Positions 11,786 through 61,281 of a DNA stretch of 64,000 bases are shown here, piece after piece. Origin of the DNA: Clostridia bacterium (lineage in GTDB: Bacteria > Bacillota > Clostridia > Oscillospirales > CAG-272); NCBI GenBank assembly GCA_017451485.1, contig JAFTOG010000023.1, positions 55,313 to 119,312 of the forward strand, in the 5' to 3' direction. How positions within the stretch are numbered: the stretch's first letter is position 1; each line of letters starts with the position of its first letter. A model generated the notes under the pieces. It was not told the origin of the DNA and made no database searches. It saw only the letters and a list, made by a program, of their open reading frames with translations. The position numbers and the translations under genes were made by a program.

Positions 11786-13966
11786 ATGGAAGATAAATTC
11801 AGCCAGCTTGAGATGGATGTTGGTGATGTCGAGAGAGTGGAAACTGAGCTTTTCGGCACCGAAAAAGAAAGAAAGCCATATCGCAGATACCCATCTAATA
11901 TGAAAATAGACGAATCTCAGATAATTGAAGATCCCGAGGAGGATTCTGAGATTGAGCTTGTTTCCCCGAATGAAGAGGTATTTAAGAAGGTATCCGGCTC
12001 AATAAGAAGAAGTGGAGAGGATAGAGAAATCCCTGATTCTGCATGGAACCGTAAGGATGAAAGTGGGGATTATAATCCCAAATTCGATGATACCTATGCC
12101 AACACCACGGAAACAGAGCATAGCTTTATGAAGACCTTTGGTATGCTCGAAACCCGTAAGAGTGTAAGCATGGAGGAAACAAATCAGACTACAAAGGAGA
12201 TAGAGGCACTCCAGGGTGATATACATTCTGATTACTACGAGTATACCGACAGACAGCAGAGAAAAGAAATAATCGGCATGTACAAGTATGCAAAAAGGTC
12301 TATAAAAATTAAAATGATAATTGCTTCTGTTTTTGCCGTTATGCTTTTGTTTTTGGAAAACATAAGCTTCTTTTCAAGAAGTCTTTATGACAGCATGGAA
12401 ATTGGAGAGCATCCATACATATTCTTTTTTGTAGATTTAGGTATTCTTCTTGCCTGCATGGGATGTGCATACGAACAGTTGTATTACGGAGGAAGATCAA
12501 TACTTGCTAAGGAGCATATTCCCGAGAGCATTTCAGTTTATGCGTGCTTAATCAGTATTGCATATTCCTTGATAACACTTATATTTGTTCCCTTTGGCTT
12601 TCAGCAGAAGCTATATAATTTCCCGGTAGCCTTAGTTTGCGTTTTATCTCTTGTGTATTCATACACAAATGTTATAAGGGAAAAATACGGCTTCAGTGTA
12701 GTATCCTCAAAGGATGCAAAGTTTGTTGTTAATAAGCTATCCTCTGATGATGCGGAAACAGAGTATGAAACCTTTACAACTACCGGTGATGATATATCCG
12801 GTAACATTAATATAGTAAAAATAGATAAGGCAAATTTCGTAAAGGGATATTTTGCAAGGACAAATCAGCCTGCCGATGTAAAAAACGCTATGGATGTTTA
12901 CTCACTTGCATCGCTTATTGCTCCTTTAGTGCTTTTTGTTATAGCTATTATTCGTGGATACATATTTACGGATGCTCTTGCAGTATGGTATGAGGGCTTT
13001 TTATTAGCTCTTCCTGTGGGCTTCTTGTTTACATATAGTATACCGTTCCTTATGGGAAATAAAAAGCTTTTTAATGACGAGGTAGCTATTATAGGCGAGA
13101 ATGCAATTAAAGAGTTTTCTGATATCAGAGTAGTTTCTGTAAATGATACAACAGCTTTTCCCCCATACAATGTAAAATTGCAGAATTTTAAGGTATATAG
13201 TGATTTCAATATTGAAAAGGTGCTTTACTATGCTGCAAGTGGATTCAGCGTCGTTGGAGGACCTTTAGCTGATGTGTTTGATTTAGCTACAAGAGATGCA
13301 ATGCAGAAGAGTAAACGTACAAAGTTTATCTGTGGTGCAAGAAGCTATTTTTGTGTAAAGGTGGATAATGATACTCTTATATTTGCTGACAGATACGGAA
13401 TGGCATCTCAGGGAATAGATGTTCCTGTAGAGAAGGATGATGCAGATGAAAGCCTGAGCATTATGTTTATGGCGTGCAACGGTACACTTTGTGCAAAAAT
13501 GTATATCAATTATATGATAGATATTGACTTTGCGGAAACAGTACGCACACTTAATAAAAACGGCACAGCAGTTATGATAAGGACCTTTGATCCCAATATT
13601 AATAATGAAATTATTAAAAAGCAGACAATATTCAAAAAGTCCGAGCTTTGCGTTATAAAGCTTAACGGCAGTGACCAGATATCAAAAACAGTAGATAAAA
13701 TAGACAGTGGAATAGTATCAAAGGGACGGTCCAGATCCTTACTTAAGGCTATTCCCGTATGCAAGAATATAACAAAAACAAGAAAGGCCTCTTTGATAGT
13801 CAAGGTAATAAGCTCCCTTACCGGACTTGTACTTCTTGGACTTACCGTGTTTGAACTTTTTGGCTTGACACCGTTTGTACCACCGATATTTGTGGGACTG
13901 TTTTATGTACCGTGGATGCTACTTATGTTGGCAATCAGTGGAATAAACCTTTCGAGGATAAGGTAA
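11786..13966 (+). CDS. Polytopic membrane protein resembling a heavy-metal (P1B) P-type ATPase but lacking the catalytic motifs; acidic N-terminal extension
   Basis: LALPVGFLFTYSIPFLMGNKKLFNDEVAIIGENAIKEFSDIRVVSVNDTTAF aligns by eye to the CPC...GILIKG..ALE...V.FDKTGTLT block, with CPC->LPV and DKTGT->NDTTA. MIRTFDPN sits in place of MLTGDN. No GDGxND is seen. Multiple TM helices. The ATG is 1 nt after the rlmB stop. Confidence 0.55.
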   Translation: MEDKFSQLEMDVGDVERVETELFGTEKERKPYRRYPSNMKIDESQIIEDPEEDSEIELVSPNEEVFKKVSGSIRRSGEDREIPDSAWNRKDESGDYNPKFDDTYANTTETEHSFMKTFGMLETRKSVSMEETNQTTKEIEALQGDIHSDYYEYTDRQQRKEIIGMYKYAKRSIKIKMIIASVFAVMLLFLENISFFSRSLYDSMEIGEHPYIFFFVDLGILLACMGCAYEQLYYGGRSILAKEHIPESISVYACLISIAYSLITLIFVPFGFQQKLYNFPVALVCVLSLVYSYTNVIREKYGFSVVSSKDAKFVVNKLSSDDAETEYETFTTTGDDISGNINIVKIDKANFVKGYFARTNQPADVKNAMDVYSLASLIAPLVLFVIAIIRGYIFTDALAVWYEGFLLALPVGFLFTYSIPFLMGNKKLFNDEVAIIGENAIKEFSDIRVVSVNDTTAFPPYNVKLQNFKVYSDFNIEKVLYYAASGFSVVGGPLADVFDLATRDAMQKSKRTKFICGARSYFCVKVDNDTLIFADRYGMASQGIDVPVEKDDADESLSIMFMACNGTLCAKMYINYMIDIDFAETVRTLNKNGTAVMIRTFDPNINNEIIKKQTIFKKSELCVIKLNGSDQISKTVDKIDSGIVSKGRSRSLLKAIPVCKNITKTRKASLIVKVISSLTGLVLLGLTVFELFGLTPFVPPIFVGLFYVPWMLLMLAISGINLSRIR

Positions 13967-32228: not shown

Positions 32229-32298
32229 TTTTGTGACTGACGGAAGCGGATAACCGCGTGGAAGCAAAAATCACTTGTATGTCGACCGTCTGGGCAGC
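32229..32298 (+). promoter_or_regulatory. ZTP riboswitch (pfl motif) aptamer
   Basis: TGACTGACGGAA (32234-32245), then a GCGG..CCGC hairpin, GGAAG, a linker, then CGACCGTCTGGGCA (32283-32296). This matches the conserved cores of ZTP riboswitches as recalled from the Fusobacterium example (..UGACUGACGGAA..GAAG..CGACCGUCUGGGC). Confidence 0.85.
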
Positions 32299-32328: not shown

Positions 32329-32359
32329 ACTTTGTAAAATATTTGATAAGGAGATAGAT

Positions 32360-32854
32360 ATGAAAAAGGTTGCAATTATTATGGGTAGCGATAGTGATTT
32401 GCCCATAGTTGAAAAGGGAATTAATGTGCTTGAGGAATATGAGGTTCCTTTTGAGGTTCATGTTTACTCAGCACACAGAACACCGGTTGAAACTGCTGAG
32501 TTTGTAAAAAACGCAAAAGATAACGGCTTTGGTGTAATTATTGCCGCCGCAGGTATGGCGGCTCACTTGGCTGGTGCTATTGCCGCTAATACTGTTCTTC
32601 CTGTTATAGGTATTCCTGTGTCCTGCAAGAATACAGGCGGTATGGACGCATTACTTGCAACTGTGCAGATGCCCTCAGGTATTCCTGTTGCTACAGTAGC
32701 AATCGATGGAGCAGCAAATGCAGCGATACTTGCCGTACAAATGCTCGCACTCTCTGATGATGATCTCTATACAAAGCTTGTAGAGGTAAGAAAAAAAGGA
32801 ACAGAGAAGATTCTTGCAAAGAACAAGGAAATTGAAGAAAAATTTAATAGGTGA
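32360..32854 (+). CDS. purE: 5-(carboxyamino)imidazole ribonucleotide mutase PurE
   Basis: [51 protein letters not shown] before the ATG at 32360. The longer listed ORF start lies within the riboswitch. Confidence 0.9.
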
Positions 32855-32877: not shown

Positions 32878-34290
32878 ATGTCAGTTTTTGGTATCATAGG
32901 AAACAAGACAGCTGATGTTGCCTCCAGCGTGTACTACGGTCTTTATGCATTACAGCACAGAGGTCAGGAGAGCTGTGGTATAGTGGTAAACGATGACGGA
33001 CTTTTCAGGGTTCATAAGGACTCCGGATTGGTAAACGATGTGTTTACCCAAAATGCTATGAAGCATCTTGGCATGGGTAAAATGGCGATTGGACATGTTC
33101 GTTATGGCACAATGCAGACAAAGGATAAGGTAAACACAGAGCCTTTTGTTGTAAACCATATAAAAGGTAAGCTTGCTGTTGCGGGACAGAGCTCCCTGGT
33201 TAATTATCCTGAGTTACGAAGAGATCTTGAACTTCAGGGTGCTATTTTCCATAGCTCATGTGATGCGGAGATAATCTCGTATGTAATTACAAGGGAGAGA
33301 TTAACAAGTGGATCTATTGAGGAAGCACTTAATAAGGCAATGAATAGCCTTAAGGGTGCATTCTCACTTGTAATAATGTCCTCTCAAAAGCTTATTGCAA
33401 CAAGGGATGAAATGGGTATGCATCCTCTTTGTTACGGTATGCGTGGAGAAAATGAATATGTTATAGCGAGTGAAAGCTGTGCTCTTGATGCTGTTGGAGC
33501 TACTTTCATCAGAGAGGTAGAGCCCGGTGAGATTATAGTTTTCTCAAAGGATGGAATAAAAACCATTAAGGATCATTGCAATAAACAGCCTGAAAGATTA
33601 TGTGTTTTTGAGTATCTCTATACAGCTCGTCCTGACTCTGTAATAAGAAATTGTGCTGTACAGGCTGCAAGGAAAAGAGCAGGAGCATTTCTTGCCAAAT
33701 CTCATCCGGTAGAGGCAGACGTAGTTGTTGGTGTTCCCGACTCCGGACTTGAGGCTGCAATTGGCTACGCTGAGGAATCCGGTATTCCATATGGTATAGG
33801 ACTTATTAAGAATAAGTACATTGGAAGGACATTTATTGCTCCTGGTCAGAATGTTCGTGAGGATAAGGTGAGAATAAAGCTTAATCCTGTTGTAAATTCA
33901 GTAAGAGGAAAAAGAATTGTACTTGTGGATGACTCAATTGTAAGAGGAACTACATGTGCAAGAATAGTAAAGCTTCTTCGTGATGCAGGGGCTAATGAGA
34001 TACACCTTCGTTCCTCTGCACCGAAATTTTTGAATCCTTGCTACTACGGTACAGATATAGAATCTCGAGATGTACTTGTGGCTTGTAACCATACAACAGA
34101 GGAAATGGAGAAAATATTTGGAGTAGATTCTCTTGGATTCCTTGAAATCGAGGATGTTGTCAAGCTTGGAGAGGGTGGCAGCTGTAAGGGCTACTGCATA
34201 GCTTGCTTTGATGGCAAATATCCTACTAATCCCCCAAGCACTACTAACAGAAATAAATACGATATAAAATTATCAGAAAGTGAGAGTTAA
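32878..34290 (+). CDS. purF: Amidophosphoribosyltransferase PurF homolog with a degenerate glutaminase active site
   Basis: The PRTase half is intact (VVGVPDSGLEAAIGYA, IVLVDDSIVRGTT), as are the Fe-S Cys contexts (CVFEYLY, NPCYYG, CIACFDGKYP). The N-terminus reads MSVFGI where CGVFGI is expected, and LAVAGQSSLVN replaces LAHNGNLVN. Confidence 0.85.
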   Translation: MSVFGIIGNKTADVASSVYYGLYALQHRGQESCGIVVNDDGLFRVHKDSGLVNDVFTQNAMKHLGMGKMAIGHVRYGTMQTKDKVNTEPFVVNHIKGKLAVAGQSSLVNYPELRRDLELQGAIFHSSCDAEIISYVITRERLTSGSIEEALNKAMNSLKGAFSLVIMSSQKLIATRDEMGMHPLCYGMRGENEYVIASESCALDAVGATFIREVEPGEIIVFSKDGIKTIKDHCNKQPERLCVFEYLYTARPDSVIRNCAVQAARKRAGAFLAKSHPVEADVVVGVPDSGLEAAIGYAEESGIPYGIGLIKNKYIGRTFIAPGQNVREDKVRIKLNPVVNSVRGKRIVLVDDSIVRGTTCARIVKLLRDAGANEIHLRSSAPKFLNPCYYGTDIESRDVLVACNHTTEEMEKIFGVDSLGFLEIEDVVKLGEGGSCKGYCIACFDGKYPTNPPSTTNRNKYDIKLSESES

Positions 34291-34293
34291 AAA

Positions 34294-35340
34294 GTGAAAA
34301 ATTCAAGATCTGAAAGCTATGCAGCTGCCGGCGTTGATATTACCGCAGGTTATAAGGCAGTTGAACTTATGAAATCCCACATTGCCCGTACAAAGAATGA
34401 AGGCTGTCTTGACGATGTAGGTGGCTTTGGTGGTTGTTTTGGACTTCCTGTTGCAGGAATGGAGGAGCCCGTACTTGTTTCCGGTACCGATGGATGTGGT
34501 ACAAAGGTGAAAATGGCTATTCTGATGGACAAGCACGATACAATCGGTATTGATGCTGTTGCAATGTGCGTAAACGATATTATCTGTGTAGGAGCAAAAC
34601 CACTGTTCTTCCTTGACTATATTGCATGCGGTAAAAACATCCCTGAAAAAATAGCTTCCATTGTTGGTGGTGTTGCGGAGGGCTGTGTTCAGTCAGGTGC
34701 AGCACTTATCGGTGGAGAAACAGCAGAGCATCCCGGTCTTATGCCCATTGATGATTATGACCTTGCAGGCTTTGCCGTTGGTATAGTTGATAAGAAAAAG
34801 ATACTTGATAACACAAAGATGGAAGAGGGCGATGTAGTAATCGCACTTCCTTCAAGTGGCGTTCACTCAAACGGATTCTCACTCGTTCGTAAGGTATTTG
34901 ATATTGATAACAATCCTGCATCTCTTTATGAGCCCTGTACCGATCTTGGTGGAGCTTCTATTGCCGAGACACTTTTGACTCCTACAAGAATTTATGTTAA
35001 ATCTGTTCTTGCTCTTATTGAGCAGGTTAATGTAAAGGGTATCAGCCATATCACAGGCGGTGGCTTCTACGAGAATATTCCAAGATCTATTCCAAAGGGG
35101 CTTTCTGCTAAAATTACAAAGTCAGCAGTTAAGGTGCTTCCTATTTTTGACCTTATTGCAAAAATCGGAAATGTTCCTGAAAGAGACATGTACAACACAT
35201 ATAATATGGGCGTTGGTATGAGCATTGTTGTTCCTGCGTCCGAGGTTGATAAGGCTATCGAAATTCTTAAGGCTCACGGAGATGATGCATATGTTATCGG
35301 TGAGATTGTTAAGGGTGACGAAGGCGTGGTGTTCTGCTAA
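34294..35340 (+). CDS. purM: Phosphoribosylformylglycinamidine cyclo-ligase (AIR synthetase) PurM
   Basis: YAAAGVDI..., GGFGG, SGTDGCGTK, GGETAEHPG. GTG start. Confidence 0.9.
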   Translation: MKNSRSESYAAAGVDITAGYKAVELMKSHIARTKNEGCLDDVGGFGGCFGLPVAGMEEPVLVSGTDGCGTKVKMAILMDKHDTIGIDAVAMCVNDIICVGAKPLFFLDYIACGKNIPEKIASIVGGVAEGCVQSGAALIGGETAEHPGLMPIDDYDLAGFAVGIVDKKKILDNTKMEEGDVVIALPSSGVHSNGFSLVRKVFDIDNNPASLYEPCTDLGGASIAETLLTPTRIYVKSVLALIEQVNVKGISHITGGGFYENIPRSIPKGLSAKITKSAVKVLPIFDLIAKIGNVPERDMYNTYNMGVGMSIVVPASEVDKAIEILKAHGDDAYVIGEIVKGDEGVVFC

Positions 35341-35966
35341 TGAAGAAAATAGCAGTTCTTGTTTCAGGTGGAGGAACTAACCTTCAGGCACTTATAGATG
35401 CAGAAAAAACAGGTATGTTCGGTGAAAGTAAAATCACTCTTGTTGTAGCTTCCAAGCCCGGTGTTTATGCACTTGAAAGGGCAGAAAACAACGGTATAGC
35501 ATCAAAGGTCCTTGCCCGGAAGGAATATGACAGCATCTGTTCATATTCCAAAGCACTTGTGTGCACTCTTAAAGAGGCAGAAATTGACCTTGTAGTGCTC
35601 GCAGGATTTTTGACAATATTTGACGAGCAGGTATATGAGGCGTTCCCCAATAGAATATTAAATGTTCACCCTGCACTTATTCCCTCCTTCTGCGGTAAGG
35701 GATACTACGGTCTTCATGTGCATGAAGCAGCACTTGAAAAGGGGGTTAAGGTTTCCGGTGCAACCGTACATATTGTAACTCCAGAATGTGATGCAGGTCC
35801 TATTGTTCTTCAAAAGGCTGTTGAGGTTTTGGAGAGTGACACCCCGGAAACACTCCAAAAGAGAATAATGGTTGAGGCTGAGTGGAAGATACTTCCCGAG
35901 GCTGTAAGGCTTTTCTGTGAGGACAGAATTACTGTTAAAAACAATAAGGTATACATAGAAAAATAA
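35340..35966 (+). CDS. purN: Phosphoribosylglycinamide formyltransferase PurN
   Basis: IAVLVSGGGTNLQALID, ILNVHPALIPSF, TVHIVTPECDAGPIV. The ATG overlaps the purM stop (TAATG). Confidence 0.9.
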   Translation: MKKIAVLVSGGGTNLQALIDAEKTGMFGESKITLVVASKPGVYALERAENNGIASKVLARKEYDSICSYSKALVCTLKEAEIDLVVLAGFLTIFDEQVYEAFPNRILNVHPALIPSFCGKGYYGLHVHEAALEKGVKVSGATVHIVTPECDAGPIVLQKAVEVLESDTPETLQKRIMVEAEWKILPEAVRLFCEDRITVKNNKVYIEK

Positions 35967-35977
35967 GGAGATAAAGA

Positions 35978-36694
35978 ATGAAGGTTTCTACTATTGCAAA
36001 TGAGCTTAATTCTCTTGCTTATCACGGCAGAGGTATTATTATCGGTAAGAGTGCAGACGCAAAAAAGGCAGTAACAGCTTACTTTATAATGGGAAGAAGT
36101 GAAAACAGCCGTAATCGTGTATTCGTTGCAGAGGGTGACGCTATGCGTACAAAGGCCTTTGACGAATCCAAAATGACAGATCCCCATCTTATTATATATT
36201 ATCCCGTAAGAGTGCTTGGCAACAAGACTATTGTTACAAACGGTGATCAAACCGACACAATTTATAAGCTTATGGATAAGCAGATGACATTTGAACAGGC
36301 TCTTCGTACAAGAGAATTTGAAGATGATAAGCCTAATTTTACTCCCCGTATTTCAGGTATTATCCGTAGAGAAGAGGATGGAATGAACTTTGCTATGTCA
36401 ATTCTTAAGAGTGCAGAGGGTGATGACTCATCCTGTGAGAGATTTACATATGCTTATTCTAATCCTAAGGCAGGTATGGCTAAGTTTATCCATACATACA
36501 ATGGAGACGGAAATCCCTTACCGTCCTTTGAAGGTGAGCCCAAAACTCTTGAGCTTCCCGATATGGATATTGATGCATTGGCTGATCATATCTGGACTAA
36601 TCTGAATGAAGATAACAAGGTATCTCTTTTTGTAAGATACATCGATATCGCAACAGGTGAAACAGAAACAAGAATTATAAACAAGAACAAATAA
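35978..36694 (+). CDS. purO: IMP cyclohydrolase, PurO (archaeal) type
   Basis: About 238 aa, with AYFIMGRSENSRNRVF and IYYPVR.. blocks. Its position, directly upstream of an AICAR-formyltransferase-only gene, is typical of the split arrangement in many Clostridia. Confidence 0.75.
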   Translation: MKVSTIANELNSLAYHGRGIIIGKSADAKKAVTAYFIMGRSENSRNRVFVAEGDAMRTKAFDESKMTDPHLIIYYPVRVLGNKTIVTNGDQTDTIYKLMDKQMTFEQALRTREFEDDKPNFTPRISGIIRREEDGMNFAMSILKSAEGDDSSCERFTYAYSNPKAGMAKFIHTYNGDGNPLPSFEGEPKTLELPDMDIDALADHIWTNLNEDNKVSLFVRYIDIATGETETRIINKNK

Positions 36695-36713
36695 TTGAAG
36701 GGCTGGTGTAAAA

Positions 36714-37898
36714 ATGAAAGAATTTGAACTTAAATACGGCTGTAACCCTAATCAGAAGCCTTCCAAAATATATATGGAAAACGGAGCAGAGCTCCCCATA
36801 GAAATCCTTTGTGGCAGACCAGGATATATTAACTTTCTTGATGCATTTAATTCATGGCAGCTTGTAAAGGAGCTTAAGGAGGCAACAGGCTTGCCCTGTG
36901 CTACATCCTTTAAGCATGTAAGCCCTACATCAGCAGCAGTTGGAATCAAGCTTCCCGAAAAGCTTAAGAAGGCTTGCTTTGTTGATGATATTGAGGGGCT
37001 TGATGATTCTCCCTTGGCTTGTGCATATGCAAGAGCAAGAGGAACAGACAGAATGAGCTCTTTTGGTGACTGGATAGCTCTTTCTGATATATGTGATGTT
37101 ACAACAGCATTACTTATTAAGAGAGAAATCTCCGACGGTGTTATTGCCCCCGGTTACACTGATGAGGCTCTTGAAATTCTTAAAACAAAAAAGAAGGGAA
37201 ATTATAACATAGTAAAAATTGATCCTGGTTATATCCCTGAAGCAATAGAGAAAAAACAGGTTTACGGAATCACCTTTGAGCAGGGTAGAAACAATTTTAA
37301 GATTGATAAGGAATTGTTTACAGATATCGTAACAGAAAATAAGGAGCTTCCCGAAAATGCTGTTATAGACCTTATAATCTCTCTTATCACACTTAAATAT
37401 ACTCAGTCAAACTCCGTTTGCTATGCTTACAACGGACAGGCAATCGGTGTCGGTGCAGGTCAGCAGTCAAGAATCCATTGTACCCGTCTTGCAGGAACAA
37501 AGGCTGATACATGGCATTTAAGACAGCACGATAAGGTTCTCAACCTTCCTTTCTTACCCACAGTTTCCCGTCCCGACAGAGATAATGTAATTGACGGATA
37601 TATCAACAAGAATGAAGAGGATGTATGTGCAGATGGAAACTGGCAGAAATATTTTTCCTATCAGCCCGAGCCCTTTACAGCAGAAGAAATGAGAGCATAT
37701 CTTGACACAATCACAGGTGTTAGCGTAGGCTCCGATGCATTCTTCCCCTTCAGTGATAATATCGAAAGAGCAAAGAGAAGCGGTGTATCCTATATTGCCG
37801 AGCCCGGTGGATCAATCAGAGATGATGTTGTTATTGACTGTGCAAATAAGTACGGTATGGTAATGGCATTTACAAAGATGAGATTATTCCACCATTAA
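36714..37898 (+). CDS. purH: AICAR formyltransferase (PurH C-terminal domain only, no MGS-like IMP cyclohydrolase domain)
   Basis: KYGCNPNQ and QSNSVCYAYNGQAIGVGAGQQSRIHCTRLA are AICARFT hallmarks. At 394 aa it lacks the N-terminal cyclohydrolase domain. Confidence 0.85.
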   Translation: MKEFELKYGCNPNQKPSKIYMENGAELPIEILCGRPGYINFLDAFNSWQLVKELKEATGLPCATSFKHVSPTSAAVGIKLPEKLKKACFVDDIEGLDDSPLACAYARARGTDRMSSFGDWIALSDICDVTTALLIKREISDGVIAPGYTDEALEILKTKKKGNYNIVKIDPGYIPEAIEKKQVYGITFEQGRNNFKIDKELFTDIVTENKELPENAVIDLIISLITLKYTQSNSVCYAYNGQAIGVGAGQQSRIHCTRLAGTKADTWHLRQHDKVLNLPFLPTVSRPDRDNVIDGYINKNEEDVCADGNWQKYFSYQPEPFTAEEMRAYLDTITGVSVGSDAFFPFSDNIERAKRSGVSYIAEPGGSIRDDVVIDCANKYGMVMAFTKMRLFHH

Positions 37899-37909
37899 TG
37901 AGGTGTATG

Positions 37910-39181
37910 ATGAGAGTAATAGTAGTTGGAGGCGGCGGAAGAGAGCACGCCATTATAAAAAAGCTTAAAGAAAACAAGTCAATAGAGCAGATATTTGCTC
38001 TCCCCGGTAACGGTGGTATTGCTAAAGATGCTACCTGTGTTAATATCGGAGCTAAGGACATTTGCGAAATTGTGAAATTCGCACAGGAAAACAGCATTGA
38101 TTATGCAGTTGTTGCTCCTGATGATCCCCTTGTACTCGGTTGTGTAGATGCTCTTAATGAGGTAGGTATCCCTTGCTTTGGACCTACAAAGGCAGCGGCA
38201 ATTATCGAGGGTAGTAAGGTATTCTCAAAAAACCTTATGAAGAAATACGGTATTCCTACAGCAGAATATGAGGTGTTCTCGAATGCCGAGGATGCTCTTA
38301 AATATCTTGAAAAGTCTCCTATTCCTACAGTTATCAAGGCAGACGGTCTGGCTCTCGGTAAAGGTGTAGTTATAGCATTTACAAGGGAAGAGGCCTATGA
38401 TGCTGTAAAGAGCATTATGGAGGATAAGAAATTCGGAGATAGCGGTAATAAAATTGTTATTGAAGAGTTTTTGGAGGGTCCGGAGGTTTCTGTCCTTGCG
38501 TTTACAGATGGCAACTGCGTTAAGCCTATGGTTTCCTCAATGGACCATAAGCGTGCACTTGATTTTGACAAGGGACTTAATACAGGAGGTATGGGTACAG
38601 TAGCACCCAACCCTTACTATACAAACAATATTGCAGAGGAATGTATGAGGACTATCTTCTTGCCCACTATTGAGGCAATGAAGAAGGAGGATAGAGAGTT
38701 TAAGGGATGCTTGTATTTTGGTCTTATGCTTACAAAAAACGGCCCTAAGGTAATTGAATATAACTGTCGCTTCGGTGATCCGGAAACACAGGTTGTATTA
38801 CCTTTACTTGAAAGTGACCTCTTTGAAATTATGCAGAGTGTTACAAACGGAACACTTGATAAATGTGATGTTAAATTTGCAGATAAGAATGCTTGCTGTG
38901 TAATTATGGCATCTAAGGGCTATCCCGAAAAGTATGAAAATGGCTTTGAAATTGTTATTCCTGAGGAAATTGCCGATTCAGTGTATGTAGCAGGAGCAAA
39001 GCTTTCTGACGGGCAGCTTCTCAGTGCAGGAGGAAGAGTACTCGGTGTTACTGCTATTGCTCCCACACTTAAGGAAGCAATTGACAGTGCATACTGCAAG
39101 GTTTCTACCATTAAATTTGACAATGCTTTCTACAGAAAAGATATAGGACAAAAAGCACTTAAAGCAACGGAGGATAAGTAA
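37910..39181 (+). CDS. purD: Phosphoribosylamine-glycine ligase PurD
   Basis: MRVIVVGGGGREHAI and ATP-grasp blocks. GAGG lies upstream; the start is ATG 37910 or 37907. Confidence 0.9.
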   Translation: MRVIVVGGGGREHAIIKKLKENKSIEQIFALPGNGGIAKDATCVNIGAKDICEIVKFAQENSIDYAVVAPDDPLVLGCVDALNEVGIPCFGPTKAAAIIEGSKVFSKNLMKKYGIPTAEYEVFSNAEDALKYLEKSPIPTVIKADGLALGKGVVIAFTREEAYDAVKSIMEDKKFGDSGNKIVIEEFLEGPEVSVLAFTDGNCVKPMVSSMDHKRALDFDKGLNTGGMGTVAPNPYYTNNIAEECMRTIFLPTIEAMKKEDREFKGCLYFGLMLTKNGPKVIEYNCRFGDPETQVVLPLLESDLFEIMQSVTNGTLDKCDVKFADKNACCVIMASKGYPEKYENGFEIVIPEEIADSVYVAGAKLSDGQLLSAGGRVLGVTAIAPTLKEAIDSAYCKVSTIKFDNAFYRKDIGQKALKATEDK

Positions 39182-39184
39182 TAC

Positions 39185-42100
39185 ATGGTTTATCGCGTTT
39201 ATGTGGAAAAGAAAAAAGGTCTTGAAAATGAGGCAAATGCCCTCTATTCCGAAATCAAAACCTTCCTCGGTATAAAAAATATCGATAAAGTGAGAATAAT
39301 GAACCGTTACGATGTGGAAAATATTACAAAGGAGCTTTTTGACTATTCTGTAAAGACAGTTTTTTCAGAGCCCCAGCTTGATAATGTATATTTCACATTG
39401 GAAAATGACGGTGCAGTGGTATTTGCAACAGAATATCTCCCTGGTCAGTTTGACCAGAGGGCAGACTCTGCGGCACAGTGTATCCAGCTTATTTCAAAGG
39501 GTGATAAGCCCTCTGTACAGAGTGCGAGAGTTTATATGCTTTACGGCACTCTCTCCGATAGCGAGATAAAGGCTATCAAAAAGCATGTTATAAACCCGGT
39601 AGAGGCAAGAGAAGCATCCCTTGAGGAAAAGGATACCATCAAGGCAGAGTACGATATTCCCGAGGATGTAAAAATAATTGACGGATTTATTGACCTTGAT
39701 AAGGACGGACTTGCAGCATTTGTTAAATCCTATGCTCTTGCGATGGATAACGATGATATCAAGTTCTGTCAGGACTATTTCAAGTCCGAGGGAAGAAATC
39801 CTACAGTTACAGAGATCCGTATGATAGATACATACTGGTCTGACCACTGTCGTCATACCACATTCTTAACAACCATTGATAATGTTAAGTTTGAGGATAA
39901 AATCCTTCAGGAAACATATGACGATTATATTAATACAAGAAAGCTTCTTAATAGAACAAAGCCCGTAAATCTTATGGATATAGCAACTCTTGCAGTTAAG
40001 TATCTTAAGAAGGAGGGCAAGCTTGATAAGCTTGATGAAAGCGAGGAGATCAATGCTTGTACTGTTAAGATTACAGTTGAAATAGACGGCAAGGCAGAGC
40101 CCTGGCTCTTGCTCTTTAAGAATGAGACTCATAACCATCCTACTGAGATTGAGCCCTTTGGTGGTGCTGCAACCTGTATTGGTGGTGCTATCCGTGATCC
40201 CCTTTCCGGAAGATCCTATGTTTACGGTGCTATGCGTCTTACAGGTGCTGCAGATCCTTTAAGATCCCTTGATGAAACTATTGAGGGTAAGCTCCCTCAG
40301 AGAAAAATTGTTACAACTGCGGCAGCGGGATATTCCTCCTATGGCAACCAGATTGGTCTTGCAACAGGAATAGTTGATGAAATTTATCACGATGGTTATG
40401 CTGCTAAGCATATGGAGGTTGGTGCAGTTATTGCTGCGGCTCCCGAAAGAAATGTACGCAGAGAGAGACCTGAGGACGGAGATGTAGTTGTTTTGCTCGG
40501 TGGACGCACAGGCCGTGACGGTTGTGGTGGAGCTACCGGTTCATCAAAATCCCATACTGTAGATTCACTTGAGCAGTGTGGAGCAGAGGTACAGAAGGGT
40601 AACGCACCCGAGGAAAGAAAGCTACAGCGTCTTTTCAGAAATTACGATGCTTGCCGAATGATCAAGCGTTGTAATGACTTCGGTGCAGGCGGTGTTTCCG
40701 TTGCTATCGGTGAGCTTGCTGACGGTCTTGAAATCAATCTTAATGCAGTTCCCAAAAAATATGACGGTCTTGATGGAACAGAGCTTGCCATCAGCGAATC
40801 CCAGGAGAGAATGGCTGTTGTAATTGAAAAGGAAAATGTACAAAAATTCCTTGCCCTTGCTCATAGTGAAAACCTTGAAGCAACAGTAGTTGCAACAGTT
40901 AAGGCTGAGCCCAGACTCAGAATGCTCCATAATGGCAAGGCTATTGTAGATATTAGCCGTGAGTTCCTTAACTCAAACGGTGCAGAAAAGCATATAGACA
41001 TTGCACCTACCAAGCTTGAGGATTATAACAAAGAAATACCAGCAGATTTTGAAAGTGGTATCAAGGATATTTGCGACAATATCAATACATGCTCAAAGAG
41101 GGGACTTAGTGAACGCTTTGACAGCACTATCGGTGCAGGAACAGTACTTATGCCCTTTGGTGGTAAATATCAGAGAACACCTATTCAGTCAATGGTACAC
41201 CTTATCTCCAGCGAGAAGGGTCATACAAATGATTGCTCATATATGTCATGGGGATATAACCCCTTCATATCAGAAAAGAGCCCGTTCCACGGTGCATATC
41301 TTGCAGTAGTTGAGTCTGTATCTAAGCTAATTGCAACAGGTGCTGAGTTCAAGGATGTTTATCTCACATTCCAGGAATATTTTGAAAAGCCTCTTAAGGA
41401 TCCTAAGAGATGGGGTAAGCCCTTATCTGCACTCCTTGGTGCATTCAAGGCTCAGAAGGACTTTGGAATTGGTGCCATCGGTGGTAAAGACTCTATGAGT
41501 GGCTCATTTGAAAAGCTCGATGTTCCTCCCACACTTATTTCCTTCGCTGTTACTAACGGTAAGACAAATGAGGTTATCTCACCTGAGTTTAAGAAGTCCG
41601 GCTCAAAGGTTGTTATTCTTAAGCCTGAGTACGATGAGAATATGCTTCCGAATATTGACTCCATACTTGCTCTTTATGATAAGGTGACAGAGCTCATGAG
41701 AGGTGGAAAGGTGCTTTCAGCATATACACCCACCATCGGCGGAGTAGCAGAGGCTGTCTATAAAATGGCTATCGGTAACGGCTTTGGATTTGAATTTGAT
41801 AACGGTCTTTCACTTAAGGATATCTTTGGATATTGCTACGGTGCATTTATTCTTGAGCTTTCTGAAGATATTGAAATCGGTACTGTACTCGGTAGAGTAG
41901 CAGATAACGGTACTATTTCATACAATGGTAAGAAGGTATGTATGTGTGCACTTACCGAGCTTTATGAAAATAAGCTTGAGGGTGTATATCCCTGCAACAT
42001 CAAATCAAGTGAGGAGAAGCCCGAAACTGTTTCCTACGAAACAGAAAAGATACTTGCTTCTTCTATCAAGGTGACAAAGCCCAAGGTGCTTATCCCTGTA

Positions 42101-42874
42101 TTCCCGGGTACAAACTGTGAATATGATTCTGCAAAGGCAGTAGAGGATGCTGGTGCACAGGCTGAAATTTTTGTTATAAACAATTTAAGTGCCGATGATA
42201 TCAAGAGAAGCTCTGAATCCTTTGTTAAGCTTCTTAAGGAATCACAGATGATATTTGTTCCCGGTGGATTCTCAGGTGGAGACGAGCCTGATGGAAGTGG
42301 TAAGTTTATTACCGCATTCTTCAGAGGAGCAGATGTTAAGGAGGCAGTAACAGAGCTTCTTGACAAGCGTGACGGACTTATGTGTGGTATTTGTAACGGA
42401 TTCCAGGCACTTGTTAAGCTTGGCCTTGTTCCTTACGGAAAAATTATTGACACAGATGAAAATTGTCCTACACTTACATTTAACAATATTGCAAGACACC
42501 AGTCAAAGATCGTAAGAACCAGAGTTGCATCCAATAAATCTCCTTGGCTCTCCGAGTGTAATGTTGGCGATATCTACAATGTTGCTATTTCTCACGGTGA
42601 GGGTAAATTCCTGGCTAATGACGCCACAATAGCAGAGCTTATTAAGAACGGACAGATTGCTACACAGTATGTAGACTTGAACGGTGAGGCTACCTACGAT
42701 ATCGATTATAATCCTAATGGCTCCAGTCTTGCTATTGAGGGTATACTCTCTCCCGATGGACGAGTAATCGGTAAGATGGGTCACTCAGAGCGTATTGCTA
42801 ACGGACTTTACAAGAATGTATACGGCGATTATGACATTAAGATGTTCAAATCTGCTGTTAAGTACTTCAAATGA
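39185..42874 (+). CDS. purL: Phosphoribosylformylglycinamidine synthase, single-chain large PurL
   Basis: 1229 aa. HNHPTEIEPFGGAATCIGGAIRD. The C-terminal glutaminase has an intact nucleophile context (GICNGFQAL) and GHSER. Confidence 0.9.
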   Translation: MVYRVYVEKKKGLENEANALYSEIKTFLGIKNIDKVRIMNRYDVENITKELFDYSVKTVFSEPQLDNVYFTLENDGAVVFATEYLPGQFDQRADSAAQCIQLISKGDKPSVQSARVYMLYGTLSDSEIKAIKKHVINPVEAREASLEEKDTIKAEYDIPEDVKIIDGFIDLDKDGLAAFVKSYALAMDNDDIKFCQDYFKSEGRNPTVTEIRMIDTYWSDHCRHTTFLTTIDNVKFEDKILQETYDDYINTRKLLNRTKPVNLMDIATLAVKYLKKEGKLDKLDESEEINACTVKITVEIDGKAEPWLLLFKNETHNHPTEIEPFGGAATCIGGAIRDPLSGRSYVYGAMRLTGAADPLRSLDETIEGKLPQRKIVTTAAAGYSSYGNQIGLATGIVDEIYHDGYAAKHMEVGAVIAAAPERNVRRERPEDGDVVVLLGGRTGRDGCGGATGSSKSHTVDSLEQCGAEVQKGNAPEERKLQRLFRNYDACRMIKRCNDFGAGGVSVAIGELADGLEINLNAVPKKYDGLDGTELAISESQERMAVVIEKENVQKFLALAHSENLEATVVATVKAEPRLRMLHNGKAIVDISREFLNSNGAEKHIDIAPTKLEDYNKEIPADFESGIKDICDNINTCSKRGLSERFDSTIGAGTVLMPFGGKYQRTPIQSMVHLISSEKGHTNDCSYMSWGYNPFISEKSPFHGAYLAVVESVSKLIATGAEFKDVYLTFQEYFEKPLKDPKRWGKPLSALLGAFKAQKDFGIGAIGGKDSMSGSFEKLDVPPTLISFAVTNGKTNEVISPEFKKSGSKVVILKPEYDENMLPNIDSILALYDKVTELMRGGKVLSAYTPTIGGVAEAVYKMAIGNGFGFEFDNGLSLKDIFGYCYGAFILELSEDIEIGTVLGRVADNGTISYNGKKVCMCALTELYENKLEGVYPCNIKSSEEKPETVSYETEKILASSIKVTKPKVLIPVFPGTNCEYDSAKAVEDAGAQAEIFVINNLSADDIKRSSESFVKLLKESQMIFVPGGFSGGDEPDGSGKFITAFFRGADVKEAVTELLDKRDGLMCGICNGFQALVKLGLVPYGKIIDTDENCPTLTFNNIARHQSKIVRTRVASNKSPWLSECNVGDIYNVAISHGEGKFLANDATIAELIKNGQIATQYVDLNGEATYDIDYNPNGSSLAIEGILSPDGRVIGKMGHSERIANGLYKNVYGDYDIKMFKSAVKYFK

Positions 42875-43005: not shown

Positions 43006-44094
43006 ATGGAAAGAGTTTATAACTTTTCAGCTGGTCCTTCCATGCTTCCTATCGAGGTTTTGAATAGAGCAGCTAATGAAATGCTTTGCTATGGCGATAG
43101 CGGAATGTCAGTTATGGAGATGAGCCACCGTTCACCTGTATATGACGAGATTATTAAGGATGCAGAAAGACTTCTTCGTAAGATTATGAACATCCCTGAC
43201 AACTACAAGGTGCTTTTCCTTCAGGGTGGTGCATCCACACAGTTTGCAGCAGTTCCCCTTAATCTTATGAACAAGAATAAAAAGGCTGACTATGTTGTAT
43301 CCGGTCAGTTCTCAAATAAGGCATATAAGGAAGCACAGAAGTACGGTGATGTAGTAGTTGCTGCATCCAGCAAGGAAGCTAACTTCTCATATATTCCCAA
43401 GTTTGATAAGTCAAATATTAGACCCGATGCAGACTATGTACATGTATGCTTCAATAATACAATTTACGGTACAAAGTTCCCCTACATACCTGACACAGGA
43501 GATATTCCTCTTGTTGCTGATATGTCCTCCTGCATCATTTCTGAGCCCATTGATGTAAACAAGTTTGGCGTTATCTACGCAGGTGCTCAGAAGAATATGG
43601 CTCCCGCAGGTCTTACAATCGTTATTATTAGGGAGGATCTTATGGGTAATGCCCGTGAAGATATTCCCACTATGCTTGATTATAAGACGATGGCTGATAA
43701 TGATTCTATGTATAATACTCCTCCTTGCTATTGCATTTATATTGCAAAGCTTGTTTACGAGTGGATTGACAGTCTTGGTGGACTTGAAAAGATGAAGGAA
43801 ATGAACGAAAAGAAGGCAAAGGTTCTTTACGATTATCTTGACAGCCAGGATTATTATATTGCACCCGTACAGAAGGATAGCCGCTCCTTGATGAATGTTA
43901 CTTTCGTTACAGGAGATGCAGACCTTGATAAGAAGTTTGCTTCTGAAGCAGGTAAGGCGGGTCTTAAGAATCTTAAGGGTCACCGTTCAGTTGGTGGTAT
44001 GAGAGCTTCTATATACAACGCAATGCCATACGACGGTGTAGTTGCTCTTGTTGAATTTATGAAGAAATTTGCAGAAGAAAATCCCAAAGCATAA
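43006..44094 (+). CDS. serC: Phosphoserine aminotransferase SerC
   Basis: YNFSAGPSMLP, and the PLP-lysine context GAQKNMAPAGLTIVI. About 362 aa. Confidence 0.9.
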   Translation: MERVYNFSAGPSMLPIEVLNRAANEMLCYGDSGMSVMEMSHRSPVYDEIIKDAERLLRKIMNIPDNYKVLFLQGGASTQFAAVPLNLMNKNKKADYVVSGQFSNKAYKEAQKYGDVVVAASSKEANFSYIPKFDKSNIRPDADYVHVCFNNTIYGTKFPYIPDTGDIPLVADMSSCIISEPIDVNKFGVIYAGAQKNMAPAGLTIVIIREDLMGNAREDIPTMLDYKTMADNDSMYNTPPCYCIYIAKLVYEWIDSLGGLEKMKEMNEKKAKVLYDYLDSQDYYIAPVQKDSRSLMNVTFVTGDADLDKKFASEAGKAGLKNLKGHRSVGGMRASIYNAMPYDGVVALVEFMKKFAEENPKA

Positions 44095-44107
44095 AGAAGG
44101 TATAGAA

Positions 44108-45268
44108 ATGAAAAATATAAAGCTTATGAATAAGATCGCAAAGGTTGGAACAGATATTTTCAGCCCTGCGAAGTATACAGTATCTGATACTTGCGAAGCT
44201 CCCGATGCTATAATGGTTCGTTCCGCAAAGCTTCATGATATGGAAATGCCCGAGACACTTACAGCTATTGCTCGCTGTGGTGCAGGTGTGAACAATATTC
44301 CTGTTGAAAAGTGCACAGAGAAGGGTATTGTAGTATTCAACACTCCCGGTGCAAATGCAAACGGTGTTAAGGAGCTTGCAATTTGTGCTCTTATCCTTGC
44401 GGCAAGAGATGTTGTTGGCGGTATTGAATGGGTTAAGACACTCGAGGGTACTGAAGGTGTTGCAAAGGCAGTTGAGGCAGGTAAGGGTGCTTATGTAGGT
44501 AATGAGCTCATCGGTAAGAAGCTGGGCGTAATTGGTCTTGGTGCAATTGGTGGTATGGTTGCTAACGCTGCTAATGCACTTGGTATGGTTGTAGTAGGAT
44601 GTGACCCTTATATCACACCTGCTGCTGCATGGCATCTTGCTCCTTCTATTGAGCAGGCTGCAAGCTATGATGAAATCTTTAAGACATGTGATTATATTAC
44701 TCTTCATGTTCCTGCGACAGCACAGACAAAGAATATGATCTGTGAAAAGAGCATTGCTATGATGAAGGATGGCGTAAAGATCATCAACCTTGCAAGAGCA
44801 GAGCTTGTTAATGCTGAGGATATGAAGAAGGCACTTGAAAGCAAGAAGGTTTCCAAGTATGTTACAGACTTCCCCACAGATGAGACAGTTGGTGCCGCCG
44901 GAATTATCAATATTCCTCACCTTGGTGCTTCTACTAACGAGTCTGAGGACCACTGTGCTGTAATGGCTGCAAAGCAGCTTGACGAGTACCTTACAAACGG
45001 TAATATCAAGAACAGTGTAAACTATCCTAATGTTGCAATCCCCCACACAGCAAGTGCTCGTGTATGTGTAATGCATAAGAATGTTCCCAATATGCTCTCT
45101 CAGATTACTTCTGCATTTGCTTCTGTAAATGTTAATATTGAGAACCTCGCAAACGGCTCAAAGGGTGATGCGGCTTATACAATTGTAGAAACCAACGAGA
45201 AGGTTGACGACGATGTTGTTAAGACAGTAATGAACATTGACGGAGTTATAAAAGTAAACTGTTATTAA
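44108..45268 (+). CDS. serA: D-3-phosphoglycerate dehydrogenase SerA
   Basis: GAGVNNIP, the NAD-binding IGLGAIGGMVA, and a C-terminal ACT-like domain. AAGAAGG RBS before the ATG at 44108. Confidence 0.9.
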   Translation: MKNIKLMNKIAKVGTDIFSPAKYTVSDTCEAPDAIMVRSAKLHDMEMPETLTAIARCGAGVNNIPVEKCTEKGIVVFNTPGANANGVKELAICALILAARDVVGGIEWVKTLEGTEGVAKAVEAGKGAYVGNELIGKKLGVIGLGAIGGMVANAANALGMVVVGCDPYITPAAAWHLAPSIEQAASYDEIFKTCDYITLHVPATAQTKNMICEKSIAMMKDGVKIINLARAELVNAEDMKKALESKKVSKYVTDFPTDETVGAAGIINIPHLGASTNESEDHCAVMAAKQLDEYLTNGNIKNSVNYPNVAIPHTASARVCVMHKNVPNMLSQITSAFASVNVNIENLANGSKGDAAYTIVETNEKVDDDVVKTVMNIDGVIKVNCY

Positions 45269-45284
45269 TTTTTTAGGTGAATAT

Positions 45285-46529
45285 ATGATTACGGTTAAAC
45301 CATTTTTTGCATTAAGACCTCAAGGTGATTTTGTAGAAGAATGTGCTGCACTTCCTTATGATGTTATGTCGAGTGAAGAGGCAAGGATAGAGGTAGAGGG
45401 TAAGCCCTATTCCTTCTTACACATTGATAAGGCTGAAATCGACCTTGACAATAATGTAAACATATACGATGAGCAGGTATATGCCAAGGCTTCTTCTAAC
45501 CTGAGGGAGTTTGAGGATAAGGGAGTATATATCAACGACAGTAAAAAAAGATACTATTTTTACCGTCAGATTATGGATGGCAGAGCACAGACAGGTATAG
45601 TAGGCTGTGCGTCAATTGATGATTATCTTGAAAACAGGATTAAAAAGCATGAGTTTACCCGTGCTGATAAGGAAATTGACAGAATAAAGCATGTAGACAC
45701 TTGCTCTGCACATACAGGACCTATTTTTCTCACTTACAAGGACAGTGCTACTCTTGATGAAATTATTGTAAAGGAAACTGAAAAGACTCCTATATATGAT
45801 TTTACATCAGATGACGGAATAAGACATACAGTCTGGGCAACTGATGATAAGTCAGTTGATGAAGCTATTGAAAAGGCGTTTTCATCTCTTGACGCTTTAT
45901 ATATTGCTGATGGACACCACCGTGCCGCATCAGCCGTTAAGGTTGGAGTAAAGAGAAGACAGGAAAACCCTGATTATAACGGAAATGAGGAGTTTAATTT
46001 CTTTTTATCTGTTATTTTCCCTTCAAAATCTCTTAAAATTCTTGATTATAACAGACTTATTAAGGATCTGAACGGATTAAATCCTGATGAATTTCTTAGC
46101 ATTATATCCAAAAAGGTAGGAACTGTAGAACAATTCGAGGATTTAGGACAATATAGACCGGAGGGTCCTCATACAGTTGGTATATATGTAAACAAAAAAT
46201 GGTATAAGGTTAAATTCTATGAGGAAATCTGTAGTGCAGATTCTCCTGTTGACCGACTTGACTGTGCTATACTTCAAAAAAATGTTCTTTCAGCAATTCT
46301 TGGAATCGAAGATCCCAGAAGCGATAAGAGAATAGATTTTGCAGGTGGTATCCGTGGTCTTGAATACCTTGAAGAAAGATGTAATCAGGATATGGTAATG
46401 GCTATTGCTATGTATCCGACATCTCTTGATGAGCTTATTGCTGTAGCTGATTCAGGTGCTGTTATGCCACCTAAATCCACATGGTTTGAGCCAAAATTGA
46501 GAAGTGGAATTTTAATTCACAAAATATAA
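45285..46529 (+). CDS. DUF1015 domain-containing protein
   Basis: PFFALRP..., ALPYDV, and the ADGHHRAASA motif characteristic of DUF1015. About 414 aa. Confidence 0.8.
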   Translation: MITVKPFFALRPQGDFVEECAALPYDVMSSEEARIEVEGKPYSFLHIDKAEIDLDNNVNIYDEQVYAKASSNLREFEDKGVYINDSKKRYYFYRQIMDGRAQTGIVGCASIDDYLENRIKKHEFTRADKEIDRIKHVDTCSAHTGPIFLTYKDSATLDEIIVKETEKTPIYDFTSDDGIRHTVWATDDKSVDEAIEKAFSSLDALYIADGHHRAASAVKVGVKRRQENPDYNGNEEFNFFLSVIFPSKSLKILDYNRLIKDLNGLNPDEFLSIISKKVGTVEQFEDLGQYRPEGPHTVGIYVNKKWYKVKFYEEICSADSPVDRLDCAILQKNVLSAILGIEDPRSDKRIDFAGGIRGLEYLEERCNQDMVMAIAMYPTSLDELIAVADSGAVMPPKSTWFEPKLRSGILIHKI

Positions 46530-59944: not shown

Positions 59945-59966
59945 GTGTCCGTTAAAAAAATTCAGA

Positions 59967-60049
59967 CTTATCAAGAGTAGTGGAGGGACAGGCCCTGTGA
60001 TACTACGGCAACCTATCGGTATGACAAGGTGCCAATTCCGTGAGATGAG
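59967..60049 (+). promoter_or_regulatory. SAM-I riboswitch (S-box) aptamer
   Basis: CTTATCAAGAGtagtGGAGGGAcaGGCCCtgtGAtactaCGGCAACC...AAGGTGCCAATTCC...GATGAG. P1 is CTTATC/GATGAG. The conserved S-box cores are present. Confidence 0.9.
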
Positions 60050-60061
60050 GTTTAGTTATTC

Positions 60062-60111: not shown

Positions 60112-61281
60112 ATGAGAATGCTTTTTACATCAGAATCAGTAACTGAGGGACATCCCGATAAAATTTGCGACCAGATTTCCGATGCGATTTTGGACGCTAT
60201 ACTCGAAAAGGATCCATTTTCAAGAGTAGCCTGTGAGACATTCTGTACAACCGGTATGGTGATGGTAATGGGTGAAATTACAACAAATGCATCATTTGAT
60301 GTTCAGTCTATTGTTAGAAACACAGTTAGAAATATTGGCTATGACAGAGCAAAATACGGCTTTGATGCTGATACATGTGCTGTACTTAGCTCCATCCACG
60401 AGCAGAGTGCTGATATTGCCCTCGGTGTTGACAAAAGTGCAGAGGCAAAAAGTGGAGAAGAGGACGGTAACGGTGCAGGTGACCAGGGACTTATGTTCGG
60501 TTATGCTTGTAATGAAACAAAGGAGCTCATGCCTCTTCCTATTTCCTTGGCTCACAAGCTTGCTAAGCGTCTTACATCAGTAAGAAAGGACGGTCTTATG
60601 GCTTATCTCCGTCCTGACGGAAAAACACAGGTAACTGTAGAATATATAGACGGAGTTCCCACAAGAATAGAGGCAATTGTAGTTTCATCTCAGCACAGCC
60701 CAGATGTTACACTTGAAAATATCCGTAAGGATGTTATCAATAATGTTATTTTGCCTATAATCCCTGCTGAAATGATAGATGATAAAACCAAGATATATGT
60801 TAATCCCACAGGCAGATTTGTAATTGGTGGACCTAACGGTGACACCGGTCTTACAGGTAGAAAGATTATAGTTGATACATACGGTGGATACTCCCGTCAC
60901 GGTGGAGGAGCATTTTCAGGTAAAGACCCGACTAAGGTGGACAGGAGTGCTTCATATGCTGCTAGATATGTAGCTAAGAACATCGTTGCATCAGGTGTTG
61001 CTGATAAATGCGAGGTACAGATTGCTTACGCTATCGGTGTAGCTAAGCCTGTTTCCGTAATGGTTGATACCTTTGGTACAGCTAAGGTAGACGAGGGTAA
61101 GATTGCAGAATTTGTTGAGAATAATATAGATCTTCGTCCTACTGCGATTATAGAAAAATTCGGCTTGAGAAGACCTATCTACCGTCAGCTTGCTGCCTAC
61201 GGCCATGTTGGAAGAGAAGATCTTGACATTCCTTGGGAAAAAACAGATCTTGCTGATAAAATCAAGGCTGAGCTTCTTTGA
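60112..61281 (+). CDS. metK: S-adenosylmethionine synthetase MetK
   Basis: [58 protein letters not shown]. Confidence 0.95.

Follow-up and report, generated by a model that had tools for sequence, protein, structure and literature searches.

A PurF lineage without its catalytic cysteine in the purine operons of uncultured gut Clostridia, with probable use of free ammonia

The amidophosphoribosyltransferase PurF catalyses the committed step of purine synthesis, and its N-terminal cysteine is regarded as universal and defining for that step. Some other enzymes, among them beta-lactam synthetase and carbapenam synthetase, both descended from asparagine synthetase B, have kept a dead class II, or N-terminal nucleophile (Ntn), glutaminase domain without its Cys1 nucleophile next to an active C-terminal synthetase. 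In Escherichia coli PurF, the replacement of Cys1 by alanine or serine abolished the use of glutamine while the use of ammonia was kept (Mei and Zalkin 1989, as summarised in PMC3261824), and the Crenarchaeota carry a PurF homolog without N-terminal cysteine, PurF', that is clustered with purine genes and was hypothesised to be an ammonia-dependent phosphoribosyl pyrophosphate (PRPP) aminotransferase (Brown et al. 2011, PMC3261824). For bacteria, my literature searches returned no description of a Cys-less or ammonia-dependent PurF, only the paper on archaeal PurF' and general reviews. Here I analyse the purF gene of a Clostridia bacterium in a stretch of 64,000 nucleotides, hereafter the window (GCA_017451485.1, contig JAFTOG010000023.1, positions 55,313 to 119,312), which belongs to a scaffold of 267 kb (scaffold_40) in the ruminant gut metagenome ERZ28654584. 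The gene (32878-34290, 470 amino acids; like all window features named below it lies on the forward strand) stands in a pur operon, and its product is on balance probably a PurF ortholog with a dead glutaminase that makes phosphoribosylamine (PRA) from ammonia.

A phmmer search of the product, which begins with MSVFGIIGNK according to the open reading frame list and its translation, against all solved structures gave Bacillus subtilis PurF, of the [4Fe-4S] type, as the best match (1ao0 and 1gph, E ~1e-126; 2e-126 for 1ao0), with 45-46% identity over the full length. Residues 2-451 pair with residues 2-448 of the mature B. subtilis protein 1ao0, and the TIGR01134 model (PurF, EC 2.4.2.14) is matched with 467.8 bits (cutoff 350) by residues 3-449, covering model positions 3-432 of 432. 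The AlphaFold2 model (mean predicted local distance difference test, pLDDT, 89.3; predicted template modelling score, pTM, 0.86; pLDDT 93 in the N-terminal strand) has the two-domain fold of an Ntn glutaminase joined to a type I phosphoribosyltransferase (PRTase), and Foldseek superimposes it on 1ao0 and 1gph, and likewise on E. coli PurF, with template modelling (TM) scores of 0.87-0.90. The window protein shares with B. subtilis PurF the four Fe-S ligands, the PRPP loop, the equivalents of R73, Y74, T76 and D127 (E. coli numbering, used throughout for canonical positions) and the location in a pur operon. However, it has neither Cys1 nor a propeptide, and its translation begins at the Cys1 position itself: since the register of the alignment is that of the mature B. 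subtilis protein, Met1 falls on the nucleophile of the canonical mature N-terminus, CG[VI][FV]G, with Ser2 opposite Gly2 (codons at 32878-32883). The start codon (ATG, 32878-80) is directly preceded by a Shine-Dalgarno sequence, AGGAGA, at 32866-71 and by an in-frame TAA at 32872-74, 3 bp upstream, which makes any upstream extension of the reading frame impossible.

The same start is found throughout a clade of relatives. The best 120 database homologs (70-99% identity) all begin with M[SAG][VIF][FL][GA]I, without cysteine. Annotation pipelines label such proteins as ordinary glutamine amidophosphoribosyltransferases, as is the case for several of them at NCBI. A scan of a genome collection with one genome per species gave 80 loci with at least 67% identity, all of them clade members, from uncultured animal- or human-gut metagenome-assembled genomes (MAGs). 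They bear the names Clostridia, Eubacteriales or, in several cases, 'Candidatus Scatosoma', a genus placed by NCBI in Clostridia incertae sedis; the nearest locus, L054 from a roe deer cecum, has 97% identity. In all 80 of these species-level genomes an ATG stands at the Cys codon, wherever sequence precedes it there is an in-frame stop, and a Shine-Dalgarno-like motif is typical. I aligned 197 distinct clade sequences and compared them with 116 canonical Clostridial PurFs. Met occupies the Cys1 position in 197/197 of the former and Cys in 116/116 of the latter, while position 2 in the clade is Ala in 119 sequences, Gly in 48 and Ser in 30. The Cys-less gene fills the purF slot of a purE-(purC)-purF-purM-purN-...-purD-purL arrangement in 80/80 loci. 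A tblastn search with B. subtilis PurF detected the Cys-less gene as the sole PurF-like sequence, both in the 64 kb window and within 10 kb of purF in 1.13 Mb of related loci. Two MAGs contain two Cys-less purF loci each (L037/L051 in JAFVXN01, 91% identical, and L057/L072 in JAFTPQ01, 79% identical), which probably reflects mixing of bins and not genuine paralogy.

The loss of the nucleophile does not stand alone. The block LALAHNGNLVN of B. subtilis PurF pairs with LAVAGQSSLVN in the window protein, where Gly103-Gln104-Ser105-Ser106 (33184-33195) take the place of His-Asn-Gly-Asn, and the oxyanion-hole pair Asn101-Gly102 thus reads Gln104-Ser105. The protein, a PurF by sequence and fold, lacks two catalytic features that define a glutamine amidotransferase. 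Among canonical cluster representatives Asn101 is present in 148/149 and Gly102 in 149/149, and Asn101 is invariant in the canonical Clostridial PurFs. In the clade Asn101 is mostly replaced by Asp (112 of 197, with Asn in 46, Thr in 12, Ser in 10, Gln in 7 and Cys in 7), and in the closest relatives of the window protein the position alternates between Gln and Asn (GQSS, VQSS, TNSS, ANSS). Gly102 is kept in 187 clade sequences; the remaining 10, with Ser, form the subclade of the window. Further sites classed as invariant in the canonical Clostridial PurFs are re-fixed in the clade, among them C1M, Q86E and F259T. At Gln86 the window protein has Glu88 (33139-33141), beside the conserved Pro87, and the clade has Glu in 197/197 vs Gln in 115/116 canonical sequences; at Phe259 (Phe260 counting Met) it has Thr249 (33622-33624), with Thr in 196/197 vs Phe in 116/116. 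Of the sites invariant in the same canonical set, P184 and R188 are changed and D267 is relaxed as well, and in the flexible loop of the PRTase domain R328K, K344D, S345K and A352P are fixed.

Much of the rest is kept. The residues that bind the glutamine alpha-amino acid are all present: Arg75-Tyr76-Gly77-Thr78 (33100-33111) correspond to R73, Y74 and T76, which serve alpha-carboxylate binding and coupling (conserved in the clade at 99%, 99% and 100%, respectively), and Asp129 (33262-33264) corresponds to D127, which binds the alpha-amino group (D in 182 and E in 15 of the 197 sequences). R26 and G27 are, like R73, Y74 and T76, conserved at 99-100%. The PRPP-binding loop DDSIVRGTT (residues 351-359, 33928-33954) is intact, has the same letters in B. 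subtilis and E. coli PurF and is kept at each position in 196-197 of 197 clade sequences. The Fe-S ligands C242, C388, C440 and C443, equivalent to B. subtilis C236, C382, C437 and C440, each occur in 197/197. An earlier, sequence-only reading of the window had proposed that Met replaces Cys1 without room for an upstream extension, that Asn101 is lost in the LAVAGQSSLVN block, and that HVRY, the SxD(A/T)E block (here SCDAE), the PRTase half with DDSIVRGTT and all four Fe-S cysteine contexts are retained. Alignment register, upstream sequence and clade conservation bear out each of these points, the loss of Asn101 for the window protein itself, and the survey of relatives suggested there extends Met1 to the whole clade.

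The clade descends from canonical PurF. In a neighbour-joining tree, which took in no named archaeal PurF' sequences, it is monophyletic in 60/60 bootstraps and sits on a long stem (0.22) nested among canonical Clostridial PurFs, a position that suggests a change in place, not a duplication. The closest canonical representative, P0121, has 53% identity and lies on a 1.7 kb contig without gene context, and the names of the nearest canonical sequences in the search point to other Clostridial taxa (e.g. Oscillospiraceae, Butyricicoccus and Intestinibacillus). The ratio of nonsynonymous to synonymous substitution rates (dN/dS) has a clade median of 0.106 in the N domain vs 0.071 in the C (PRTase) domain, and between the window and L054 it is 0.059 and 0.024, respectively. 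At matched C-domain divergence the N domain of the clade is only slightly more diverged than in canonical PurFs. Decay of the N domain was considered and is ruled out by dN/dS and by identities matched on C-domain divergence. The suggestion of the sequence-only reading that there is no general decay thus stands, with the N domain under strong purifying selection (median dN/dS ~0.1), and so does its companion observation that the fused PurL of the same operon keeps an intact glutaminase (GATase_5 domain, GICNGFQ at residue 1068).

The clade is not the only lineage with this loss. Among the 150 best representatives of 50%-identity clusters, 12 further Cys-less representatives were found. P0288, P0295 and P0313 (a MAG named Oscillospiraceae at NCBI; L084 6001-7407, GCA_017421025.1, JAFQME010000016.1) start with MGVFGIA; the purF ATG lies 3 bp after the purC stop in the operon purE-purC-purF-purM-purN-purH-purD, the AHNG oxyanion motif is kept, HVNY stands for HVRY with loss of Arg73, and 60/60 bootstraps place the lineage with canonical relatives. 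In P0126 the Cys1 position is taken by Ser (MSGVVGV), and Q86E and N101D are present as in the window clade; this gene, too, lies in a pur operon (L088 3556-4905; L089 7001-8350, GCA_964415085.1), and it groups with P0203 in 59/60 bootstraps. The Cys-less state has arisen independently in other pur operons (P0288, P0126), at least one of them that of a gut Clostridium. The position N101 is changed in 9/13 Cys-less lineages vs 1/149 canonical representatives, and changes of N101, Q86, F259 and R73 are enriched across the Cys-less lineages (p from 4e-11 to 9e-6), which are not fully independent of each other; changes of T76 are strongly enriched as well. R73, T76 and D127 are kept in the window clade, whereas most other Cys-less lineages lost them. 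P0220 (L090 7001-8344) represents another type of locus, a Cys-less PurF-like gene outside any pur operon, and a second PurF-like gene lies about 6 kb downstream of it (L090 14284-15344), among genes without Pfam matches.

Comparison with the E. coli enzyme and its laboratory mutants suggests that the glutaminase of the window PurF is dead, because it has no nucleophile, because its oxyanion hole is altered, and because the E. coli C1A and C1S proteins, in the summary cited above, do not use glutamine. The intact PRTase half and the pur operon context indicate that the protein still makes PRA. An ammonia-dependent PRA synthase was offered as a possibility in the sequence-only reading, and the comparative data strengthen it: the loss is fixed across at least 80 species, in the operon's own purF and under strong purifying selection, it recurs in other pur operons, and it comes with coordinated clade-fixed changes in the glutamine site, the channel and the flexible loop. 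The Cys1 codon is now the start codon and the Asn-Gly pair of the oxyanion hole is altered, which would have inactivated the Ntn glutaminase permanently, and PRA would be formed from PRPP and free ammonia, which is abundant in hindgut and rumen. Met1 would be removed, the mature protein beginning at residue 2. The old glutaminase domain would contribute to the fold and to the closed PRTase site and probably provide the route of ammonia to PRPP; it may be a scaffold, a channel or entry port, or perhaps a ligand sensor. A second, canonical PurF is presumably absent from the genome. The E. coli mutants may serve as a functional model in so far as they too have no N-terminal cysteine. The window PurF, however, is natural and conserved over a clade, carries additional changes in the glutamine site and channel, and has Fe-S ligands, unlike the E. 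coli type. It differs from beta-lactam and carbapenam synthetase in that chemistry and substrate changed there, while here the reaction from PRPP to PRA would presumably be unchanged and the nitrogen source alone would differ.

Several points weigh against this interpretation. Canonical PurFs have a Michaelis constant (Km) for ammonia in the millimolar range, which leaves the efficiency of such an enzyme uncertain. The exchanges of Asn for Asp and Gln for Glu are single-nucleotide and near-isosteric, and their recurrence could therefore be neutral rather than adaptive. A purely structural role of the old glutaminase domain fails to explain the 99-100% conservation of R73, T76 and D127. Finally, the search for a second purF was confined to the window and the 10 kb flanks of related loci.

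A more specific possibility, which I put forward tentatively from the pattern of substitutions, is that the glutamine pocket has been rebuilt as a dedicated entry port for ammonia or ammonium. The two canonical amides around the former carboxamide subsite have turned into acids, Gln86 to Glu throughout the clade and Asn101 to Asp in most members. In molecular dynamics simulations of the E. coli enzyme (PPAT) published in 2025, a flip of Phe260 (mature Phe259) was reported to precede the exit of ammonia through a lateral 'front channel' with gate residue Arg333 (PMC12017579). By analogy, F259T is proposed to be a change at this ammonia gate. The flexible loop is re-fixed, and the gate arginine itself is kept in the window protein as Arg317. 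R73, T76 and D127 would possibly be kept for glutamine sensing.

That last possibility can be taken further, and the dead site could be a sensor in which R73, T76 and D127 still hold glutamine or a different alpha-amino acid and which, by way of the former coupling between the domains, switches an ammonia-dependent PRTase according to nitrogen status. The retention of these residues and of Y74, mostly lost in other Cys-less lineages (with D127 at 100% if D and E are taken together), is in accordance with this, as are the dN/dS of about 0.1 in the N domain and the re-fixed flexible-loop residues, which contact the glutamine domain. However, ligand binding is putative, and in canonical PurF the glutamine-binding residues also serve loop closure and channel formation, which could explain the retention of R73, T76 and D127. 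I consider such a sensor unlikely as it stands; it is a refinement of the ammonia-dependent synthase rather than an exclusive rival to it.

Rather improbable, too, is that the Cys-less protein is an accessory, regulatory or condition-specific paralog, e.g. for high ammonia, with a canonical glutamine-dependent purF elsewhere in the genome. The Crenarchaeota, with PurF next to a Cys-less PurF' (PMC3261824), provide a precedent, P0220 with its neighbouring PurF-like gene resembles such a situation, and the search for second copies was confined to window and loci. In the clade, however, the place of the ancestral purF in the operon is taken by the Cys-less gene at every locus, neither the loci nor the window contain a second copy in the range searched, the position among canonical orthologs suggests change in place, and the closest canonical sequences are named from other taxa. 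The likeness to archaeal PurF', a Cys-less PurF homolog among purine genes with the same ammonia hypothesis attached, is thus limited by a difference in context: PurF' accompanies a nearby canonical PurF, while the window gene fills its operon's only purF slot and appears to replace the canonical enzyme. As the bacterial clade groups with canonical Clostridial PurFs, an origin independent of archaeal PurF' is likely.

It is very doubtful that glutamine is still the nitrogen donor. Ntn hydrolases can use Ser or Thr, and excision of Met would expose Ser2 in the window protein; two-subunit amidotransferases also exist, and a separate glutaminase subunit might deliver the ammonia. Yet Ser2 pairs with Gly2 and is thereby shifted by one residue from the Cys1 position, and since position 2 is mostly Ala or Gly in the clade, Ser2 is ruled out as a replacement nucleophile; E. 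coli C1S, again as summarised in PMC3261824, has no glutamine-dependent activity. The oxyanion hole is altered too, and among the clade-specific invariant residues (197 sequences vs 116 canonical) there is no new Cys nucleophile, C185 and C201 occurring in canonical Clostridial PurFs as well. The separate amidotransferase partner that the sequence-only reading offered as an alternative finds no counterpart, as the 80 loci contain no further gene that is conserved alongside purF. A gene of about 750 bp lies between purE and purF in 27 loci, and was considered as a partner glutaminase; in the one locus inspected (L022) it is purC.

An artefact can be dismissed: wrongly called starts have been described for purF of archaea (PMC3261824), but nothing other than the unusual N-terminus points to one here, a mis-called start is rejected by the Shine-Dalgarno sequence and the TAA 3 bp upstream, with an in-frame stop in every locus that has sequence 5' of the ATG, and sequencing or assembly error or a pseudogene by the same ATG in 80 independent assemblies and purifying selection over the full reading frame.

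The operon around purF has the order purE-purF-purM-purN-IMP cyclohydrolase-AICARFT-purD-purL in a Pfam scan. Its leader contains a ZMP/ZTP riboswitch aptamer (Rfam RF01750, 32223-32302, 56.9 bits with a gathering score of 39), which also occurs 5' of purE in L054, L001 and L036 and was not found before purE in L022, L031 and L043. It is followed by purE, encoding AIR carboxylase (32357-32854; PF00731, E 2.9e-61), for which the open reading frame list gives a GTG start at 32258; as this would overlap the riboswitch, the ATG at 32357 is probably the real start. Downstream of purF follow purM, purN, IMP cyclohydrolase (PF07826), an AICARFT-only purH, purD and the fused purL (34294-42874). The separate IMP cyclohydrolase and AICARFT-only PurH (35978-37898), together with the absence of purC, mark the subclade of the window, while in most clade loci purN is directly followed by purD. 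Directly 3' of the operon, genes for a class V aminotransferase, for a D-2-hydroxyacid dehydrogenase and for a DUF1015 protein (43006-46529) resemble a cluster for serine biosynthesis, in which the third gene is uncharacterised. Elsewhere in the window, an S-adenosylmethionine (SAM) riboswitch (RF00162, 72.7 bits, 59965-60051) lies upstream of metK, encoding S-adenosylmethionine synthetase (60112-61281), and an open reading frame of 726 amino acids (11786-13966), flanked by genes for a SpoU methylase and a radical SAM protein, has no Pfam match at E<=1e-6.

If the only PurF of this clade cannot use glutamine, metabolic models of many abundant uncultured Clostridia from ruminant and human guts mis-assign the nitrogen source of purines, and purine synthesis in these organisms would depend directly on luminal ammonia. 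The 2011 hypothesis on archaeal PurF' would gain bacterial examples, which would be easier to interpret because they apparently replace the canonical enzyme instead of accompanying it. The clade would also offer a natural system in which to study external access of ammonia to the PRPP site, the ammonia channel, the Phe259/Arg332 gate and the coupling between domains without glutamine hydrolysis. Should the glutamine pocket indeed have become an entry port, purine synthesis would draw on free ammonia at its committed step in a whole clade of gut bacteria of the class Clostridia and, convergently, in other lineages, and the PurF of the clade would be the first natural PRPP amidotransferase specialised for ammonia.

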